From: an uncultured Planctomycetota bacterium
GTDB lineage: Bacteria; Planctomycetota; Planctomycetia; Gemmatales; Gemmataceae
Direction: 5' to 3'
Length of the DNA stretch: 64,000 nucleotides
NCBI GenBank assembly: GCA_963767535.1
Contig: CAVYEC010000002.1
Span: forward strand, 505,062 to 569,061
Part shown: piece after piece, positions 2,536 to 43,553 of the stretch
Layout of the letters: every line of letters begins with the position of its first letter
How positions within the stretch are numbered: the stretch's first letter is position 1
Translations under genes and position numbers: made by a program
Notes under the pieces: model-generated
Databases searched by the model: none
Told to the model about the DNA's origin: nothing
What the model saw: only the letters and a program-made list of their open reading frames with translations

Positions 2536-5500
2536 ATGGTTCCCACGCTCCCCGGCACGAACGCCAACCGACTCAACGGCCGCCGCGAAGAAGTGCCGTC
2601 CTCCTCGACCATGTCGTTGCGCTGGGAGAGTGAAGCCATCATCCTCCGCGGCGACGACCGCGACGAACTGCGCCGGCGCGTGCTGGAATTGGGCGACTTC
2701 CTGACGCACACCCCTGCCGTCGAGTTGAAGGATCTCGCCTTCACCCTCAATACGTCGCTGGCACCCGGAGGCAGCCGGTTGGCGATGGTGGTCGAGTCGG
2801 TCGCGGATTTGCAGACGAGACTGGCACGCGCGGACGAGCGCCTGGCCGACCCGCGTTGCCGGCAAATCAAGGACTCGCGCGGGAGCTATTTCTTCGAGAC
2901 ACCTCTGCACTCGCAAGGCAAACTCGCCCTGTTCTTCCCCGGCGAGGGCAGCCAGTATCTCAACATGCTTGGTGATCTACTGCCGCATTTTCCCGAAGTT
3001 CGCCAGCATTTCGAGCGCTGCGATCGCCTGTCGATGCGCGCGGTCGGCGCGACGAGCCGATCAGTCGCCATATCTTCCGGCCCGAAACCATCTCGGCGGC
3101 CGAGAAGGATGCGGCTGAGAAGGACCTGTGGCGGCTGGGCAATGCGGTCTCCAGCATCCTCATCGCCGAATGGGCGCTGTATCTGCTGCTGCACGAATTG
3201 GGGTTGCGGCCGGATGCGATCGGCGGGCACAGCGCCGGCGAGTTCTCCGCGCTTCTAGCGGCGGGTTGTGTCGAGCCGGATGATTTCTTCATCGAGCAGC
3301 TTTTCGCGCTGAGCCACGTTTTGCAGTGTCAGGAAGATGATCGGCAGTTGTCCGAAGTTACCCTTCTTGCCGTGGCCGCCGGGCGCCGCACCGCGGAGGA
3401 ACTTCTTGGCTCGGAGGCGGGCGTTTGCATCGCGATGGATAACTGCCCACATCAGACCGTCGTGGCCTGCCCACCCGCCGCGTCGGACTCCGTTGAGATG
3501 AGGCTGAGCGAGCATGGCATCGTGTGCGAACGGCTGCCATTTCGCCGTCCTTATCACACGCCGCTGTTCGAGCCGTTCCTCGGCCCCATCGTCCAGATGT
3601 ACGAGCGGCTGACGGTGCAGCCGCCCCGCCTTCCTCTGTATTCCTGCACCACCGGCCGGCTTTTTCCGACAGAACCCGCGGCGATCCGCCGGTTGGCGGT
3701 GTCTCACTGGGCCTCGCCGGTCGAGTTCGTCCGCCTCGCCGAAACGATGTACGCCGACGGCGTGCGGCTGTTCGTCGAGTGCGGGCCGCGCGGCAACCTG
3801 ACCGCATTTTTGCAAGACATTCTGCGCGGTAAACCCTGCGAGGCCGTGCCCGTCAACCTGTTCCACCGCTCCGGCCTGACGCAGCTCAACCATCTGGCCG
3901 CGCTGCTGGCGGCCCATCATGTTCCGCTGCGGTTGGAGCATCTGTATAACCGGCGTGACCCGCGCCGGATCGAATGGGAGCGCCGTCCGGTCGTAGGGTG
4001 GGCCGAGTCTTCGAGGCCCACCAGCAGGGGCGTGGTGGGCCTCGAAGACTCGGCCCACCCTACGGCTGACGCCCCCCGCGCCGCTGTTCTGGAACAATAC
4101 CTGGATGTGATGGAGCAATTTCTGGACGTAGAGCGCGAGGTCATGGAGCAATTCCTCGCCCACCCCCGGAGCGCGACGATTCGCTCCCCGGTGCGTCCGC
4201 TGCTCGGTGAGATCCTCCGTCACGAACCCGGCCGCGAGCTGGTCCTGCGTCGCCGCATGGACCTGGCCGAAGACCTGTACGCCTCCGATCACACGCTCGG
4301 CTCGCGCCACGCCAGCGCCATGGATCCCACGCAGCACGGGCTGCCGTTCATGCCGATGGCCTTCAGTCTGGAAATGATGGCCGAGGCCGCCGCCGTCCTC
4401 GTGCCCGGTAAACTCGTCCTCGGCTTCCGGCGCGTCCGCCTCCAGCGCTGGATACCGTTCGACGACGAACCGACCACCGTCGAGTTGACGGCCCGCGTTC
4501 GGCTCGACGCGGTGAACGAGATCGTCATGGAGATACGCGACTTCGGTAACACCGTCTGCCCCGGCAATGCCGACTCTCCCGCGATCACGGGCACGGTGAT
4601 CCTGGGCGATCACTATCCCAATCCGCCGCCCGCCGAGGATTTTCCGCTCACCCACGAGACGCCCTGCCGTTACACTCCGCATCAGCTTTACGAAGGCGAG
4701 CATCGTCTGTTTCACGGCCCGCTGTTTCAGGCGCTGGTTTCGACCGACCGGCGCGGCGACGAGGGCATTGAAGGGAAACTACAAACCCTCCCGCACTCCG
4801 GACTGTTCCGCTCCAGCTCCGAGCCGGACTTGCTGCTCGATCCGCTGTTGATCGACGCCTCGACGCACTTGCTGGGCTGCTGGCACCTCGGCCTGCCCGA
4901 CCAGACCGGCCGTGTCGTCCTCCCGTATGAGTTGGGCGAGGTCACGATTTATGGACCGCGCCCGGCCGTCGGCACGCGCATCGGCTGTCGCGTCCGCATC
5001 GAGCGCCAGTCGGCGCGGCAGGTTCGCCATCGCATCGACCTGCTCTCCCCGGATGGGCGATTATGGTGCCGGCTCGACGCGGCGGAATACTGGCGCTTCT
5101 ATTGGCCGATCGAATACGTAGATTTCTTCCGCCATAAGGACCGTTTCTTCCTGGCCGGCCCGTGGCCGCTGCGCGGCGTCGCGGCCCATCGAGGACACTG
5201 CACTCGCATCGAGCCGTCCGACGATCTTTGCCAGCCGGTGCCGCGAGGGGCCGTGGCCCGTGTTACCCTGACTCGCTCGGAATGGAGTCGTTTTCGCCTC
5301 CTCAAAGTGCCTGAAAATGAGCGAACCCAATGGCTGTTCGGCCGCATCGCGGCCAAGGACGCAATCCGCTCGCTGTGGCAGGAGCGTCACGGCCAGCGTC
5401 TGTGCCCCGCCGACATCGAACTGGACGCGGACGCGCACGGCCGGCCGCTGCCGCGCTATCGCGGAGAGGAACTCATCGCGGCGCTGCCGTCGGTCTCGTT

Positions 5501-17290: not shown

Positions 17291-17352
17291 TCCGTAGTCC
17301 GTAGCAAAGACAATAATTGGTTTTTGCTACGGACTACTGGCTACGGACTACG
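17279..17352. repeat. Long intergenic hairpin, GTAGTCC-heptad family
   Basis: cgtagtccgtagtccgtagtccgtagcaaa .. tttgctacggactactggctacggactacg. The ilvE stop codon lies inside the left arm. Confidence 0.8.
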
Positions 17353-17359
17353 AACGACA

Positions 17360-17825
17360 ATGATCGACTTACATCGCATTCTGGTCCCGACCGATTTCAG
17401 CAAGTCGTCGCGGAACGCGCTGACCTACGGAGCGGCGTTCGCCGCCCGGTTCGGCGCGGAGTTGCATTTGCTGCACGTCGTTCAGGATCTGGCCCTGTTC
17501 ATCCCGGAAGCCGTTATGCTGGCGCCGCCGATGGTGCCCCCGGTCGAGCAGTTTGTCACGGCGGCGCGGGCGGCGCTGGATCGCGCCGTGCAGGAGTTGG
17601 CCACCCCCGACGTTCGCGTCATCCCCCAGGTGGGCGAGGGCACTCCCTTTGAGGAAATCGTCCGCTTCGCGCGAGAAGGACATCGACCTGATTGTCATGG
17701 GCACGCACGGACACACCGGGTTGGCGCACCTGTTTTTGGGCAGCGTCGCCGAGAAGGTCGTTCGCCGGGCGCCGTGCCCGGTGCTGACCGTGCGCCACCC
17801 CGAACACGAGTTCGTCCATCCCTGA
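17360..17825 (+). CDS. Universal stress protein (UspA family); frame break ~17675
   Basis: [21 protein letters not shown]-terminus, then [36 protein letters not shown] in ORF 17553..17825. Confidence 0.75.
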
Positions 17826-17841
17826 ATGGTGAAGGTTCGCC

Positions 17842-18513
17842 ATGCCCCGATATCGACCGACGCCGGTGTTCGTGATCGCGATCCTTCACCTGGTAGGAGG
17901 CGGTCTGGGTCTGATCTTCTCGCTGTGCGGGTGCGCCGGGCTGTTCATGGGAAGCGCGCTCAGCTCGATGTCTCTGCCGACGGTCCCCGCCCGTCCTGGT
18001 CAGACGGCTCCTCCCCCGCCGCCCGGCCCCAACGAGATCATGAAGTTTTACAACGAAAATGTGCCCGGCTATCAGGCGTTCACCATCGGCGCGATTGTGG
18101 TGAGTTTGCTGCTTGATGGGATGCTGCTGGCCGCGGGGATCGGTTTGTTGAACATGCGCCCCTGGGCGCGGGGGTTGTCGCTGGTCTATGCCCCCATCAG
18201 CATCGTCAACCGCGTCTTCGCGTTCATTTATCAGCTGGTGTTCGTGACGCCGGCCACGGAAAAGCTCTACGCCCAGAACCCCGTCCTGGCGGGCATGTCG
18301 AGTTTCATGACCATCACTACGGGAGTGGGACTCGTCGTGAATTTGCTCTTTATCATCTATCCCATCACGGTGCTGGTCATCCTTCTGATGCCGTCCACGG
18401 CCGCGGCCTTTCGCGTTCAGGCCCCGGTTCGATCGGACGACATCGGCGAGGAGGCTTCCGACTCAGACGACTCCTGGCGCGACCCTCCACGCAGCGACGC
18501 AATCACCCGTTGA
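17842..18513 (+). CDS. Multi-pass membrane protein, unknown function
   Basis: Four hydrophobic segments and an acidic C-terminal tail. I recognise no family. Confidence 0.5.
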   Translation: MPRYRPTPVFVIAILHLVGGGLGLIFSLCGCAGLFMGSALSSMSLPTVPARPGQTAPPPPPGPNEIMKFYNENVPGYQAFTIGAIVVSLLLDGMLLAAGIGLLNMRPWARGLSLVYAPISIVNRVFAFIYQLVFVTPATEKLYAQNPVLAGMSSFMTITTGVGLVVNLLFIIYPITVLVILLMPSTAAAFRVQAPVRSDDIGEEASDSDDSWRDPPRSDAITR

Positions 18514-18843: not shown

Positions 18844-19721
18844 ATGAGTTTGCCACCCTCGAATCTCGCCTTGTTTTTGGCGGACGACGTGCGGCGCGAC
18901 CGAATCCTCCACGCCCTTTCGATGTTGCGAGACGCCTGGGAAGCCGCCCAAGATCTGCAAGTCCCCGCGGAGGAATTCGCCCTGGAAATGCGTCCCTTCT
19001 ACGCGGCCGGCCTGACCAACACGGACTTGCGCTGGCTCGTCGCCAAGGGGTACGTGGATCACCTCCAGGAACAGATCGACGCCCGCACCGGCCGCCGACT
19101 GTTCCGCCGTTCGCACAGTCTCACCATCACCCCCGACAGTTGTTTCGTGCTGTCCGCGGCGGGACTCGGCTTCGCTTCGGAGCGGCGCAGGAGTCTGTGC
19201 CTGCGTTTCGGCCGGCGGAGGCCCCGAAGCCGTCGGTGGTCTGCACGCTCGTTCCCTATTGGGACGGCGCGCTGCGCGTTCTTCGCTGGAAGGACTTCCT
19301 CGTCAAGCGCTATCGGGTTCCGGCCGTCAACCAGGAGCGGATCTTGACCGCCTTGCAAGAGGAAGGTTGGCCGTCGCGCATTGATGATCCCCTGCCTCCT
19401 GCTCGGGACATCGACCCCAAGGCGCGTCTGCACGATGCCATCAAGGGACTTAACCGCAACTGCGTCCACGCGCTGTTGTGCTTCCACGGTGACGGCACGG
19501 GCCGGGGGCTTGTTTGGAGCCTGACGCTGCGCGCCGCGCCGAAGTGCGGTAGCGAAGAGAAAAATACCAGCCGCAAGCGCCAGCGAGCGGAATCGAGACC
19601 GCTCGCTGGCGCTCGCGGCTGGTATAGAGTGACTACAACTCAACCACCTCGACCTCGCGCACGAACCGATCCGGTTCGCCGCCCAGGAACGAGGCCACCA
19701 CCTCGAACACCGCGTCACTGA
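18844..19721 (+). CDS. Hypothetical protein; frame break ~19180; 3' end uncertain
   Basis: ATG preceded by ggag. ORF 18769..19347 continues in ORF 19140..19721 (..LGFAS|[10 protein letters not shown]..). The distal part runs through the 19564-19625 hairpin and into rsr, so the true stop is probably earlier. Confidence 0.35.
19564..19625. terminator. 27-bp stem hairpin between convergent genes (bidirectional terminator candidate)
   Basis: ataccagccgcaagcgccagcgagcgg / aatcgaga / ccgctcgctggcgctcgcggctggtat, with one mismatch. Confidence 0.7.
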
Positions 19722-21256
19722 ACCCGCCGATGTTCAAGATGTCGGCGCGCTCCGGCGCCTGGCTGGTGGCGTACGCCTGCAAGTCCATGCACACCAGCTT
19801 CGGACCCGCCCAGCCGGCGTCGTGCAGGCGCTTCTGGTTGGCGACGAACTCCTGCCACTGGGTCATCACGCCCGTCGAGCCGGCCCGACCGGCGCCGACC
19901 CAGCTTTCCATGTCGCTGACCAGCACGCAGCCGGCGAAACGACGATCGCGGTACGTCTTGTTCGCCTCGGCCAACGGCAGCGAGCAGTCCGTGCCGCCGC
20001 CGCCGAAGCGGGCCAGGTAGCCAGCCAGGTCGAGGATCGCCTCATCCGCGCCAACGTCGGCCTTGTACGCCACCGTATCGAACGGGATGACGACGCTGCC
20101 GGGGTTGCGGCGCAGGAGCGCCGCCGCGAACAGGGCGGCCACGTCCACGCAGCGCACCTTGCTCGTCGCGCCGCGGCCGCGCTGGCCGGTCACGGGCGAA
20201 CCCATCGAGCCGGACACGTCCAGTCCAATGACGACCGGCTCCGGCAGCTCGGGCACGTTGCCGCACGCAATCTCCGCGGCCCGGCCGAGAGCGTCGCGGA
20301 TCGCCTGCGGCACGTTCGCCTCGGCGTTGAGGTACGCGGCGAGGTACTGATACGGAAACTGCCGGCTCTTGCGGATCTCATCGCGGTCGGCGATCCGCTC
20401 GGCCACATGCATGACCAAAGCCAGGTCGCCGGCCAGGGCGTCGTGGCGCAGGAGCGTGTTGAGGTTCATGCGCAGCGCCTGCGGTCCCATCTGGCGGGCG
20501 ATGGCCTTCCAGACGGACGGGCCGCGGGCCGAGTCGGCCAGCAAGTCCCAGCGGAAGCGGGCGCGCTCAAGGATCGCGACCTGTTCCGCCTCACTTTCGG
20601 CGTTACGGAACGCGATCAAATCGCCGATCTCGCGCGGCAGGTCCGCCAGTGTGGCCGGCGCCCACTTCTCGACCGGCTTGCCCGTCAGCCAGCCATACAG
20701 GGCGCGACGGGCGTTGTCCGTCGGCGTGGGCCGGGCCAGGCGCAGCACGTCGCGCAGGCTCGGGTCGTTGCCGATCGACGCGGACAGCAACATGCCGACG
20801 CCGGCCGAGTTCAGCCAGCGCTGGAAGGCGCGCTGCAGCGCGTACGACAGGCTCTTGCGGCCGAGTTGACCAAGAGCGGACCATCTGGAACACCGTTCGC
20901 AGCACCCGGCCGTTATCGACGACGCGCTCGAAGACGCGGCGGAACAGCGCCGGGTCGCGCTTCGACAGTACGACGAGCAGGGCGGCCGGCATGTTCTTCA
21001 TGAAAGCGCGCTGCCGGCAATACAGGGCGAGCTTGGCCAGGTAGACATTGTCGTCCACCTGATCGACCAGGGCCAGCAGGGCGGCCAACTGCGCTTCGGC
21101 GTTGCTGTAGTACGCGCCGTTGAAGCAGCCCGTCGCGGCCAGCTGCGCCAGGGCGTGGCGCGGCGGCAGCCGGTAGGCGAGACCGCCGGCCTCGTTACGG
21201 GCATCGGCGCACGGCAGCAGCCCCTTGAGGGTGGCGAAGAGGTTCTTGTTAGCCAT
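19633..21256 (-). CDS. rsr: Ro 60-kDa autoantigen orthologue (Rsr): TROVE domain + von Willebrand A domain; frame break ~20870-20880
   Basis: N-terminal TROVE-like sequence ([51 protein letters not shown]). C-terminal vWA with MIDAS DVSGSM. The junction is FQMVRS|(G)[19 protein letters not shown]. Confidence 0.85.
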
Positions 21257-21277
21257 CGGGCGTCCTCCGGGAAAAGC

Positions 21278-21360
21278 GATCCGACGAGGTGTGGGCAGAG
21301 TATTCGTCCTTGCGGACGAATCGATTAACAGTCGATGTACTCCGCACCGGCAGTCGGATC
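21278..21360 (-). ncRNA. Y-RNA-like gene, unit 4 (Ro-binding helix + two small hairpins, no tRNA module)
   Basis: Closing stem GATCCGAC/GTCGGATC, followed by GCTTTTCC. 5' motif CTGCCGGTGCGGAGTACAT and 3' motif TACTCTGCCCACACCTCG. The apical part has ATCGA-CTGTTAA-TCGAT and TTCGTCC-GCAA-GGACGAA hairpins. Confidence 0.65.
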
Positions 21361-21379
21361 AGGATTCAGAATGTCCAGT

Positions 21380-21482
21380 CGCCAGCGAAGGGTTGGGCAG
21401 AGCCTCCAGCCCCATTTGTGTAGAGAGGGCTGGTCAGGAATCGAACCTGGTTTGACCATGTACTCCGCACCGGCAGCTGGCG
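21380..21482 (-). ncRNA. Y-RNA-like gene, unit 3 (Ro-binding helix + partial tRNA mimic: T-arm and loop-capped acceptor-like stem)
   Basis: Closing stem CGCCAGC/GCTGGCG. 5' motif CTGCCGGTGCGGAGTACAT. T-arm CCAGG-TTCGATT-CCTGA. 7-bp stem CCAGCCC/GGGCTGG capped by a 14-nt loop. 3' motif GGCTCTGCCCAACCCTTCG. Confidence 0.6.
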
Positions 21483-21495
21483 GTGGTCGCATAAA

Positions 21496-21631
21496 GACCG
21501 ACGAGGTTTTGGCCAGAGTTCTTCTGCCGCGTCTGCCAATTCCGCCACAGGGCCTACGGCCCTGGTGGGATTTGAACCCACACGAACTTTCGCTCAACAG
21601 ATCCGGATGTACTCCGAACCGGCAGTCGGTC
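21496..21631 (-). ncRNA. Y-RNA-like gene, unit 2 (YrlA-type; permuted class II, tRNA-Leu-like mimic)
   Basis: Closing stem GACCGAC/GTCGGTC, then TTTAT. 5' motif CTGCCGGTTCGGAGTACAT. Variable-arm-like hairpin GAGC-GAAA-GTTC. T-arm GTGGG-TTCAAAT-CCCAC. Acceptor CAGGGCC-GTA-GGCCCTG. Leu-type D-arm TGGCGGAATTGGCAGACGCG. 3' motif AACTCTGGCCAAAACCTCG. Confidence 0.7.
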
Positions 21632-21638
21632 TGGTTCC

Positions 21639-21766
21639 GAGGGACGGTTGACGAGGGGATGGTCAGAACATTGCTCTTTCCGTTGAGCTACGCCCCGGTC
21701 TCAGTCGGGGCGACAGGAGTCGAACCTGCAACAGATGTACTCCGAACCAGCAGTCAAACCGCCCTC
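21639..21766 (-). ncRNA. Y-RNA-like gene, unit 1 (YrlA-type; permuted tRNA-Pro-like mimic)
   Basis: Closing stem GAGGGCGGTTTGAC/GTCAACCGTCCCTC. 5' motif CTGCTGGTTCGGAGTACAT. T-arm GCAGG-TTCGACT-CCTGT. Acceptor 3' strand CGCCCCG, loop ACTGAGAC, 5' strand CGGGGCG. TA-GCTC-AACGGAAA-GAGC D-arm. 3' motif ATGTTCTGACCATCCCCTCG. Confidence 0.7.
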
Positions 21767-21810
21767 TGGGCGCGTGATATTTCCTCCGTTGTGCATCTCA
21801 ATAGCACGAC

Positions 21811-21882
21811 TATCCCGGCTTGGATTTGAACCAAGGACCGGACCTTAGGAGAGTCCGATGTTTTCCGCCACACCACCGGGAT
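21811..21882 (-). tRNA. tRNA-Arg (anticodon CCT), 72 nt, CCA not encoded
   Basis: Hand-folded cloverleaf: ATCCCGG TG GTGT GGCGGAAA ACAT C GGACT CTCCTAA GGTCC GGTC CTTGG TTCAAAT CCAAG CCGGGAT A. Confidence 0.75.
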
Positions 21883-22018
21883 GATTCGGCATGTGCGTGC
21901 TGGGAGAAAGGACGCGGAGGAGGGCCGACAGGTTCGCTGAAATTCGCCGCGACTATGCGACGGCGGAGCGGTAAACTAGGTCCACTCACAGCAGACACCA
22001 AACGAAAGGAAACGAAAA

Positions 22019-22488
22019 ATGACGGAAAGTAGCCGAAGCGTCAAGAGCACCAACGCGATCAATACGAAGTCCAAGGGATTCACGCACGAGGAACAAGCCG
22101 CGATGAAGGCTCGCGCCGAAGAGCTGAAGGTGGAAGCTGCGCGAAAAAGAACAAGGCGGACGGGGAAAGCGACGTGCTCGCGGCGATCGCCGCGATGCAG
22201 GAACCGTATCGCGCCATGGGCGAGCGGCTCCATGCGCTCATCAAAGCCAGCGCGCCGGTCCTCGCGCCGAAAACCTGGTACGGGATGCCCGCGTATGCCA
22301 AGGACGGCAAGGTCGTCTGCTTCTTCCGCGGCGGGGACAAGTTCAAGGAGAGGTACATGACGCTCGGCTTCAACGACGCGGCGAACCTCGACGAAGGCAC
22401 CCTGTGGCCAATTGCCTTCGCACTGACGGAGTTGACCGCCGCCGAAGAGGCAAGGATCGGCGCGCTTGTGAAGAAAGCAGTGAGCTGA
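22019..22488 (+). CDS. DUF1801 (YdhG-like) domain protein; frame break in the A-run at 22144-22148
   Basis: ..KVEAARK|[60 protein letters not shown], a typical YdhG/DUF1801 pattern. Confidence 0.65.
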
Positions 22489-43416: not shown

Positions 43417-43553
43417 TCTAGTCCGGCCCTGCCGGTTCTGAGGACGTGTCGGCCTCTTTTGCACCCGAAAGTTGTCCGGAATCGCTTGAAACTATAACTG
43501 AACTGTTGTACCCTCGTGGGTTGTGTCTTCTGGGTCCAGCACGGATGTGTCCC

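Follow-up and report, generated by a model that had tools for sequence, protein, structure and literature searches.

We have identified a cluster of repeated structured elements directly upstream of rsr, the gene for the bacterial Ro60 orthologue, in a 64,000-nucleotide (nt) stretch of DNA from an uncultured planctomycete of the Gemmataceae (contig CAVYEC010000002.1, positions 505,062 to 569,061; hereafter the window). The locus is very probably a polycistronic non-coding cluster, tRNA-Arg, Y1-Y4, rsr, that encodes four bacterial Y RNAs of the YrlA lineage. The anatomy of the sequence, its homology, covariation, synteny and tRNA-likeness were all directly observed. The original prediction, an unannotated four-gene Y RNA array, is upheld by a clade-specific covariance model that matches all four units, by covariation and by synteny. 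The locus is unusual in its four-unit modular array, its linkage to tRNA genes and a putative terminal Rsr-binding module, here called the handle, that is conserved on both strands.

Y RNAs have been found encoded beside rsr on the same strand, and a Y RNA tethers Rsr to PNPase. YrlA carries a permuted tRNA-like domain and is a structural mimic of tRNA (Chen et al. 2014, PMC4201824; Wang et al. 2018, bioRxiv 10.1101/312249); 355 putative YrlAs have been listed in 254 bacteria and 22 phages (Chen et al. 2014, PMC4201824). Characterised species carry two Y RNAs each. A single precursor is cleaved to give YrlA and YrlB in M. smegmatis, where both are stable and Rsr-bound. [quoted passage not shown]

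In the window, the minus strand carries tRNA-Arg(CCT) (21811-21882), a 44-nt spacer, unit 1 (21639-21766, 128 nt, YrlA-like), unit 2 (21495-21632, 138 nt, YrlA-like), unit 3 (21379-21483, 105 nt), unit 4 (21278-21360, 83 nt), a 21-nt linker and rsr (19633-21256), whose ATG is at 21256. The tRNA, the first gene of this co-oriented cluster, was called by ARAGORN and scored 45.6 bits with the Rfam tRNA model. Unit 3 was defined by its minimum free energy (MFE) fold and a match to the covariance model R1 introduced below, and unit 4 has an MFE of -36.1 kcal/mol (z=-4.1). The four units occupy the region 22-510 nt 5' of the rsr ATG on the same strand, inside the distance of less than 4 kb from rsr used by Chen et al. 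2014.

Each unit opens with a unit-specific stem strand followed by CUGCYGGUKCGGAGUACAU. The 19-mer CTGCYGGTKCGGAGTACAT was found in exactly four minus-strand copies in the window (21335-21353, 21458-21476, 21607-21625 and 21735-21753), against a chance expectation of 0.03, at the coordinates originally given for it. The two ends of every unit form the handle, which consists of a unit-specific closing stem, a conserved asymmetric loop (UGCC / ..ACYUC) and a bulged helix in which GG-[U]-KCGGAG is paired with CUCUGNCC, as judged by folding and inspection. The closing stem of unit 1 has 14 bp (GAGGGCGGUUUGAC/GUCAACCGUCCCUC), and all four closing stems read as had been described, as do the K:N pairs of units 1-4 (U-A, U-G, G-C and G-C). 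The 3' motif CUCUGNCC..CYUCG, said to follow each 19-mer at 60-110 nt, is present in all four units, but its start-to-start spacing in unit 4 is only ~50 nt. As in Y RNAs generally, the ends pair, a conserved bulged helix is present, a variable module lies between, and the sizes are small (83-138 nt, as compared with 80-130 nt in the general definition).

R1 is a planctomycete-specific model built from an alignment (A1) that includes unit 2 as a seed member and does not include units 1, 3 and 4. In the window it matched the four units and nothing else. Unit 2 scored 107.9 bits as a member of the seed, and the three units from outside the seed scored 76.1 bits (unit 1), 52.6 bits (unit 3, E=1e-10) and 51.3 bits (unit 4, E=2e-10); the next match in the window had 8.8 bits (E=2.9). 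For comparison, 164 Planctomycetota rsr loci were assembled, of which 80 came from a genome scan with the frame-repaired Rsr protein, 80 from a metagenome scan and 4 from exact-protein look-ups. When the 5' motif was searched in the first 80 loci (626 kb) with up to four mismatches, there were 295 occurrences on the rsr strand upstream of the gene, five downstream of it and three on the opposite strand. R1 gave 318 matches at E<=1e-4 in the 80 genome loci; among the 300 matches listed, all were on the rsr strand and all but one were upstream of rsr. Arrays in relatives range from one to ~11 units a locus and mostly have 3-4, and the loci L001 and L085, whose Rsr is 84% identical, share the four-unit architecture of the window. 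The array in Stieleria marina (L074, 1733-3917) has ~11 units over 2.2 kb with a ~500-nt insert between units that contains an open reading frame (ORF). Another locus (L046, 4581-4707) has extra units downstream of rsr, maybe a second array, and an IMG/VR contig (L166) has a single motif match and weak R1 matches.

This distribution bears on whether the units are a dispersed genomic repeat, resembling repetitive extragenic palindromes or miniature inverted-repeat transposable elements or belonging to a mobile element, that accumulated here by chance. The sequences are indeed repeated and palindromic, and one IMG/VR contig classed as viral carries the same tRNA-plus-unit array. However, the window holds no further copy. 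Its one other near-match to the 19-mer, at 43429 with three mismatches, is not recognised by R1 and was for that reason treated as chance. The copies in the 626 kb of related loci are essentially limited to the strand upstream of rsr, and the units of any one locus carry different modules and did not prove to be duplicates. A dispersed repeat unrelated to rsr, a possibility that had been raised for the 19-mer, is thus not seen in the window or in these 626 kb, and we give this explanation scarcely any weight.

Covariation supports the Y RNA reading further. A1 comprises 45 unit-2-class sequences and is based on MAFFT; a second alignment (A5) of 150 sequences is model-fitted and hence biased towards the structure, which A1 is not. 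On A1, RNAalifold predicted the closing stem, the inner helix, a T-arm and an acceptor-like stem, with compensatory changes in 18 of 25 pairs. After addition of the D-stem and the GG:CC pairs, 95.2% of cells were paired, compared with 34-48% when the partners were slid, and double changes occurred in 22 of 31 pairs. None of 500 shuffles reached the observed values; the sequences are mutually related, which inflates this shuffle significance and tells against our reading, and the slid-partner controls are unaffected. In A5, 96.4% of cells were paired and 26 of 31 pairs had double changes. A stem-only MAFFT alignment was dropped, having anchored on the closing stem with the register of the inner helix off by 1 nt, and flank-anchored and own-versus-swapped tests were used instead. 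With anchoring on the invariant flanks, the K:N position was paired in 45 of 50 units (G:C 18, U-G 13, U:A 10, A:U 4), whereas shuffles averaged 23 and never exceeded 35 of 50. The outer 5 nt of the closing stem were fully complementary in 59% of own pairings and in 7.7% when 5' strands were swapped, and for 258 of 293 units the own partner gave the more stable inner helix. In the alignment of the unit 3 class (A2), closing stem and bulged helix covary, with K:N pairs of GC (18), UG (4), AU (3) and GU (2). The handle covaries in the unit 1, 3 and 4 classes, whose own inner helices also covary in close orthologues. The covariation that had been called for in homologous regions upstream of rsr was thus found, over 45-150 units, in both the shared stem and the tRNA-like helices.

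The modules between the handle strands differ from unit to unit. The module of unit 1 has a T-arm, a 7-bp loop-capped acceptor stem, a D-arm and a 4-bp anticodon-like stem, in the manner of a circularly permuted class I tRNA. Unit 2 resembles a permuted class II tRNA, with a T-arm, a 7-bp acceptor stem capped by GUA, a 3-bp D-stem, a long variable arm with a GAAA loop and a 5-bp anticodon-like stem. In the MFE fold of unit 3 a T-arm is accompanied by an acceptor-like stem of 7-8 bp that ends in a 13-nt loop, and a D-arm is lacking, which makes the module a partial mimic of the minihelix type. Unit 4 carries a pair of short hairpins, with a GNRA tetraloop on the second, and has no tRNA-like feature. 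The helices of unit 1 are kept in the orthologues L001, L081 and L100, and both hairpins of unit 4 are kept through compensatory changes in L001, L002 and L081. In order to assess mimicry, the tRNA-like domain was cut at the acceptor loop, closed at the position of the handle with a 7-nt loop and submitted to ARAGORN. Re-circularised unit 1 was called as a 74-nt tRNA and unit 2 as an 87-nt tRNA, both canonical cloverleaves; none of 400 shuffles was called, and neither were the native units 1 and 2. These calls, together with the folds and alignments, show the proposed gradation to be correct, from full mimics in units 1 and 2 through a partial one in unit 3 to none in unit 4. The permuted domain of T-arm, loop-capped acceptor stem and D-arm that defines YrlA is present in units 1 and 2 only.

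In principle the units could be what is left of a tRNA array, its genes decayed or rearranged, with chance accounting for the location beside rsr and no function tied to Rsr. The units do contain T-arm, D-arm and acceptor-like sequences, and large tRNA arrays lie immediately upstream in relatives. The Rfam tRNA model also gave a weak chimeric match across units 1 and 2 (22.9 bits, 21557-21694, minus strand), made up of the unit 1 D-arm and the unit 2 T-arm, the reverse of the 'dimeric tRNA'-type artefact about which Chen et al. warned. Decay does not account for the permuted order of the arms (T, acceptor, D) around a loop-capped acceptor stem, nor for the same non-tRNA 5' and 3' handle in all units, including those without any tRNA feature. 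The helices covary, which indicates selection, and the units occur almost exclusively upstream of rsr. We therefore consider decayed tRNA genes very improbable and retain the Y RNA reading.

Among known Y RNAs, units 1 and 2 are most readily compared with YrlA (RF02553) of S. Typhimurium and M. smegmatis. Like YrlA, they lie next to rsr on the same strand, their two ends form an outer stem, an internal loop and an inner bulged helix, and they contain a circularly permuted tRNA-like domain made up of a variable region, T-arm, loop-capped acceptor stem, D-arm and anticodon-like stem. They differ from it in that the tRNA imitated by unit 2 is of class II, with a long variable arm, and in that the window has four units as against one YrlA. 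The 3' strand of the handle (CUCUGNCC...ACYUCGUCG) is conserved as well as the 5' strand, unlike in Salmonella and M. smegmatis, where only the 5' strand is recognisable (Chen et al. 2014, PMC4201824). Units 3 and 4 recall the further, non-tRNA-like RNAs that occur in the same cluster, and are Rsr-bound, in M. smegmatis and Salmonella (YrlB) and in D. radiodurans (Yrn2). M. smegmatis YrlB, which has a T-arm only, approximates unit 3, and the simple hairpins of other YrlB- or Yrn2-type RNAs approximate unit 4. Outside the handle, however, units 3 and 4 have no detectable sequence similarity to these RNAs, and, unlike YrlB and Yrn2, all units of the window have in common one strongly conserved handle, which makes them recognisable as a single family. 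On sequence grounds, units 1 and 2 are classed as divergent YrlA-lineage Y RNAs, with units 3 and 4 as putative handle-sharing relatives analogous to YrlB and Yrn2.

With D. radiodurans Yrn1 and the metazoan Y RNAs (RF00019) the units share conservation of both strands of the bulged helix near the termini, a size of 80-140 nt and a U-run after the terminal stem of the last unit. By sequence, the handle is similar to the bulged helix that Ro binds in animal Y RNAs, its 5' strand GGUKCGGAG recalling the GGUCCGA contacted by Xenopus Ro60. Unlike in metazoan Y RNAs, the bulged base is U and not C, the effector modules are unrelated, and transcription would be bacterial and polycistronic as opposed to by Pol III. 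The original prediction had placed the Ro site in the inner helix; the Rfam alignment puts the YrlA 'GNCGAA' motif on the closing-stem/loop region instead. There, 'CgaAUGC' of YrlA falls on the junction UGACUGC, GNCGAAN0-1G is aligned to (U/C)(U/C)GACUG, and the YrlA inner helix 'gGgaaCUAc' falls on UCGGAGUAC; the inner helix of the units reads GKCGGAG. Because the alignment spans closing stem, loop and inner helix, the whole handle is taken, on this alignment, as homologous to the Rsr-binding module of YrlA, and the predicted Rsr contact may lie anywhere within it.

Several observations weigh against the assignment of the units as Y RNAs made from one transcript with rsr. At Rfam gathering thresholds, the tRNA alone was detected in the cluster region. 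A permissive Rfam scan of 21150-22050 aligned YrlA over its full model length to unit 1 (47.9 bits, E=1.8e-9) and unit 2 (24.2 bits, E=0.013), but neither reached the YrlA gathering score of 69, and the same scan gave no YrlA match to units 3 and 4 and no match to the metazoan Y_RNA model at E<=10. The covariance-model check that had been proposed thus gave sub-threshold YrlA matches for units 1 and 2 and none for the other two units or with Y_RNA. Among ~70 units in 20 related loci, none attained the YrlA gathering score. The literal GNCGAAN0-1G motif of YrlA does not occur in the units, in which its nearest forms, CCGACUG and GKCGGAG, are each one or two positions off. A promoter scan of 19300-22300 detected no sigma-70-like promoter. 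Finally, an uninterrupted rsr reading frame is not present in the window; if the frameshift is real, the RNAs here would be without their partner.

The rsr gene is split into two overlapping minus-strand ORFs (20603-21256 and 19633-20793). Deletion of one T at ~20872 yields a 540-amino acid (aa) protein, with the frames meeting at ...FQMVRS | GQLGRK.... The repaired protein matched TROVE (PF05731, 37.8 bits against a cut-off of 23) and vWA_Ro60 (PF25045, 45.4 bits against 27.7), with the MIDAS motif DVSGSM, so the Pfam results confirm that the two ORFs together encode TROVE and vWA domains. It also matched D. radiodurans Rsr (PDB 2nvo) over residues 18-527 (phmmer, 3.3e-15). Homologues number in the thousands; the best are of 540 aa and 92-93% identical, and their source names are Gemmataceae or '60 kDa SS-A/Ro'. 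The two closest contigs (P0001 and P0002) have an intact 540-aa rsr and, downstream of it, two small genes, Usp and Aminotran_4, arranged as in the window. Rsr is intact in all relatives. The extra base has no counterpart in any of eight orthologues checked, which read CGC-TCC-GGC where the window reads CGC-TCT-T-GGT. Two neighbouring genes are broken in a similar way. In a DUF1801-like gene (22019-22488, plus strand) one A is missing from an A5 run at ~22144, and adding it restores the frame; in a Usp gene (17324-17875, plus strand) the C-terminus lies in another frame (ORF 17553-17825) after a break at ~17665. With three indel-split genes within 5 kb, an assembly artefact is the likeliest reading, and the rsr frameshift is probably an assembly error and not pseudogenisation.

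The arrangement of the cluster is in keeping with a common transcript. The linkers between the units of the window are 12, 11 and 18 nt (median over related loci, 17 nt), which leaves no space for separate promoters. A very strong intrinsic-terminator-like hairpin with a T-run (19561-19618, minus strand; 20-bp stem with 16 G-C pairs) was located by a terminator scan; it starts 14 nt past the rsr stop codon and ends the cluster. In relatives, 427 co-oriented tRNA genes lie upstream of Y arrays, compared with two on the opposite strand, and a co-oriented tRNA lies less than 300 nt from the first unit in 42 of 63 informative loci. The proposed co-transcription with tRNA-Arg and rsr therefore draws its support from synteny, that is, from the short linkers and the 427 tRNAs to 2. 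Genes flanking the cluster encode an ArsR-type regulator, AHSA1, DUF7010, DUF1801, Usp and an aminotransferase; RtcB, RtcA and PNPase were not found among the genes neighbouring it.

The junction between the last unit and rsr requires separate consideration. In the window, this junction reads GCUUUUCCCGGAGG...AUG, and the linker (21257-21277, minus strand; GCUUUUCCCGGAGGACGCCCG) has a T-run right after the closing stem and then a ribosome-binding site (RBS), GGAGG. Against a background of 1.6%, 73 of 91 distinct loci have at least four T straight after the last unit, and the rsr ATG follows 19-25 nt downstream. The 21-nt distance of unit 4 from the ATG, followed by T-run and RBS, suggests attenuation or autoregulation by Rsr, and it is possible that the linker is an attenuator, an autoregulatory site or an RBS occluded by Rsr. 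A stronger version of this idea holds that the units are nothing but a structured 5' leader of the rsr mRNA, that is, tandem Rsr-binding or attenuator elements that regulate in cis and are not free small RNAs. The short distance to the ATG, the T-runs with an RBS just downstream and linkers too short for internal promoters are all as such a leader would have them. A leader, however, does not need elaborate covarying tRNA-like modules. Neither does it fit arrays of up to ~11 units that begin more than 2 kb upstream, or the ORF between units in L074, and the homologous YrlA and YrlB of M. smegmatis are processed to stable Rsr-bound RNAs. Moreover, cis regulation is compatible with a small-RNA role and does not exclude it. 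We regard a purely cis-acting leader as improbable, and the four Y RNAs remain our preferred reading, with regulation of rsr by the last unit as a possible addition.

In relatives, the position of the window's tRNA-Arg is held by one tRNA or by a large tRNA array. tRNA array units, defined as at least 20 tRNAs at a density of at least 2 per kb, have been described (Tran et al. 2015, PMC4758250; Morgado & Vicente 2018, PMC5966550), and in related Planctomycetota loci 20-30 co-oriented tRNAs at more than 2 per kb likewise stand directly before the Y array. The window itself, with a single tRNA, is not such a unit. This definition applies to L033 (29 tRNAs), to L008, L048 and L062 (25 each) and to L167 (30 before the Y units), and tRNA arrays extend upstream of the Y units at L033 1-2972, L008 216-3434, L048 3-3087, L062 3-2950, L030 64-2589 and L004 827-2942. 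Many Planctomycetota rsr loci have such arrays, of up to 29 genes, and these usually end ...Arg-Arg-Cys(GCA). tRNA-Cys(GCA) is the last tRNA before the Y array in 34 loci, where it mostly ends exactly 4 nt before the first unit. L167 (8566-13216) is the contig classed as viral (IMGVR_UViG_3300049594_000559); in it 30 co-oriented tRNAs are followed by Y units (R1 scores of 116 and 67 bits), and beyond these lie an ORF, another two tRNAs and additional units. The contig may represent a prophage, a mobile element or a misclassified chromosomal fragment.

A further type of module was found in relatives and not in the window. In 30 distinct units the module opens, directly after the 5' strand of the handle, with ACGGUCCUAAGGUAGCGA, whose 18 nt are identical to positions 1919-1936 of E. 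coli 23S rRNA (blastn-short against E. coli rrlH). In several of these units (e.g. L013 and L022) the module ends, before the 3' strand of the handle, with CGGCCGUA, which corresponds to 23S positions 1905-1912. Examples are L013 3279-3454, L024 ~3117-3305 and L074 ~1814-1985. A scan of one such unit with Rfam by E-value gave no match to large-subunit rRNA. As read from these matches, the module is a putative circular permutant of the helix-69 region, opened at the loop and carrying the handle in its place.

We found no description of planctomycete Y arrays, of the rRNA mimic or of the linkage to tRNA arrays in the accessible literature, some reviews and supplements being outside this scope. 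No Y-RNA paper naming Planctomycetes was present among the top-ranked full-text results, and no tRNA-array paper among the accessible full texts named Ro60, Rsr, TROVE or Y RNAs. Planctomycetes receive only a passing mention in Tran et al. 2015 (PMC4758250). The Y RNAs of Planctomycetota have gone unannotated because their scores lie under the curated Rfam threshold.

We infer the following course of events at the locus. A single precursor would be cut by the tRNA-processing machinery and other RNases, and each mature RNA would bind the outer face of the Rsr ring through its handle. The bound RNA would gate the ring and connect it with a partner that differs from module to module, the same handle presenting a class I mimic (Y1), a class II mimic (Y2), an acceptor/T minihelix (Y3) or two hairpins (Y4). 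On the model of D. radiodurans and Salmonella, candidate partners are PNPase and tRNA-binding enzymes. The last unit may also attenuate or autoregulate the expression of rsr.

On a wider scale, the relatives suggest a conserved super-operon of the Planctomycetota in which a tRNA array leads into a Y-RNA array and then into rsr, one Rsr-binding handle carries interchangeable mimics of translation RNAs, and the window is a reduced version; we hold the case for and against this idea to be evenly balanced. Its library of mimics would comprise class I and class II tRNA, the acceptor/T minihelix, GNRA hairpins and, in relatives only, the permuted 23S helix 69. Were it true, one and the same Ro60 ring could be steered towards a large number of different RNA-processing partners, or be gated by them. 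This locus offers a natural series on one handle (class I, class II, half and none) that would permit tests, unit by unit, of what each module recruits. The Y RNAs of a whole phylum lie under the Rfam threshold, and the alignments and clade model obtained here could seed a better family. If confirmed, the upstream tRNA arrays and the helix-69 mimics would tie Ro60 to surveillance of the translation apparatus.

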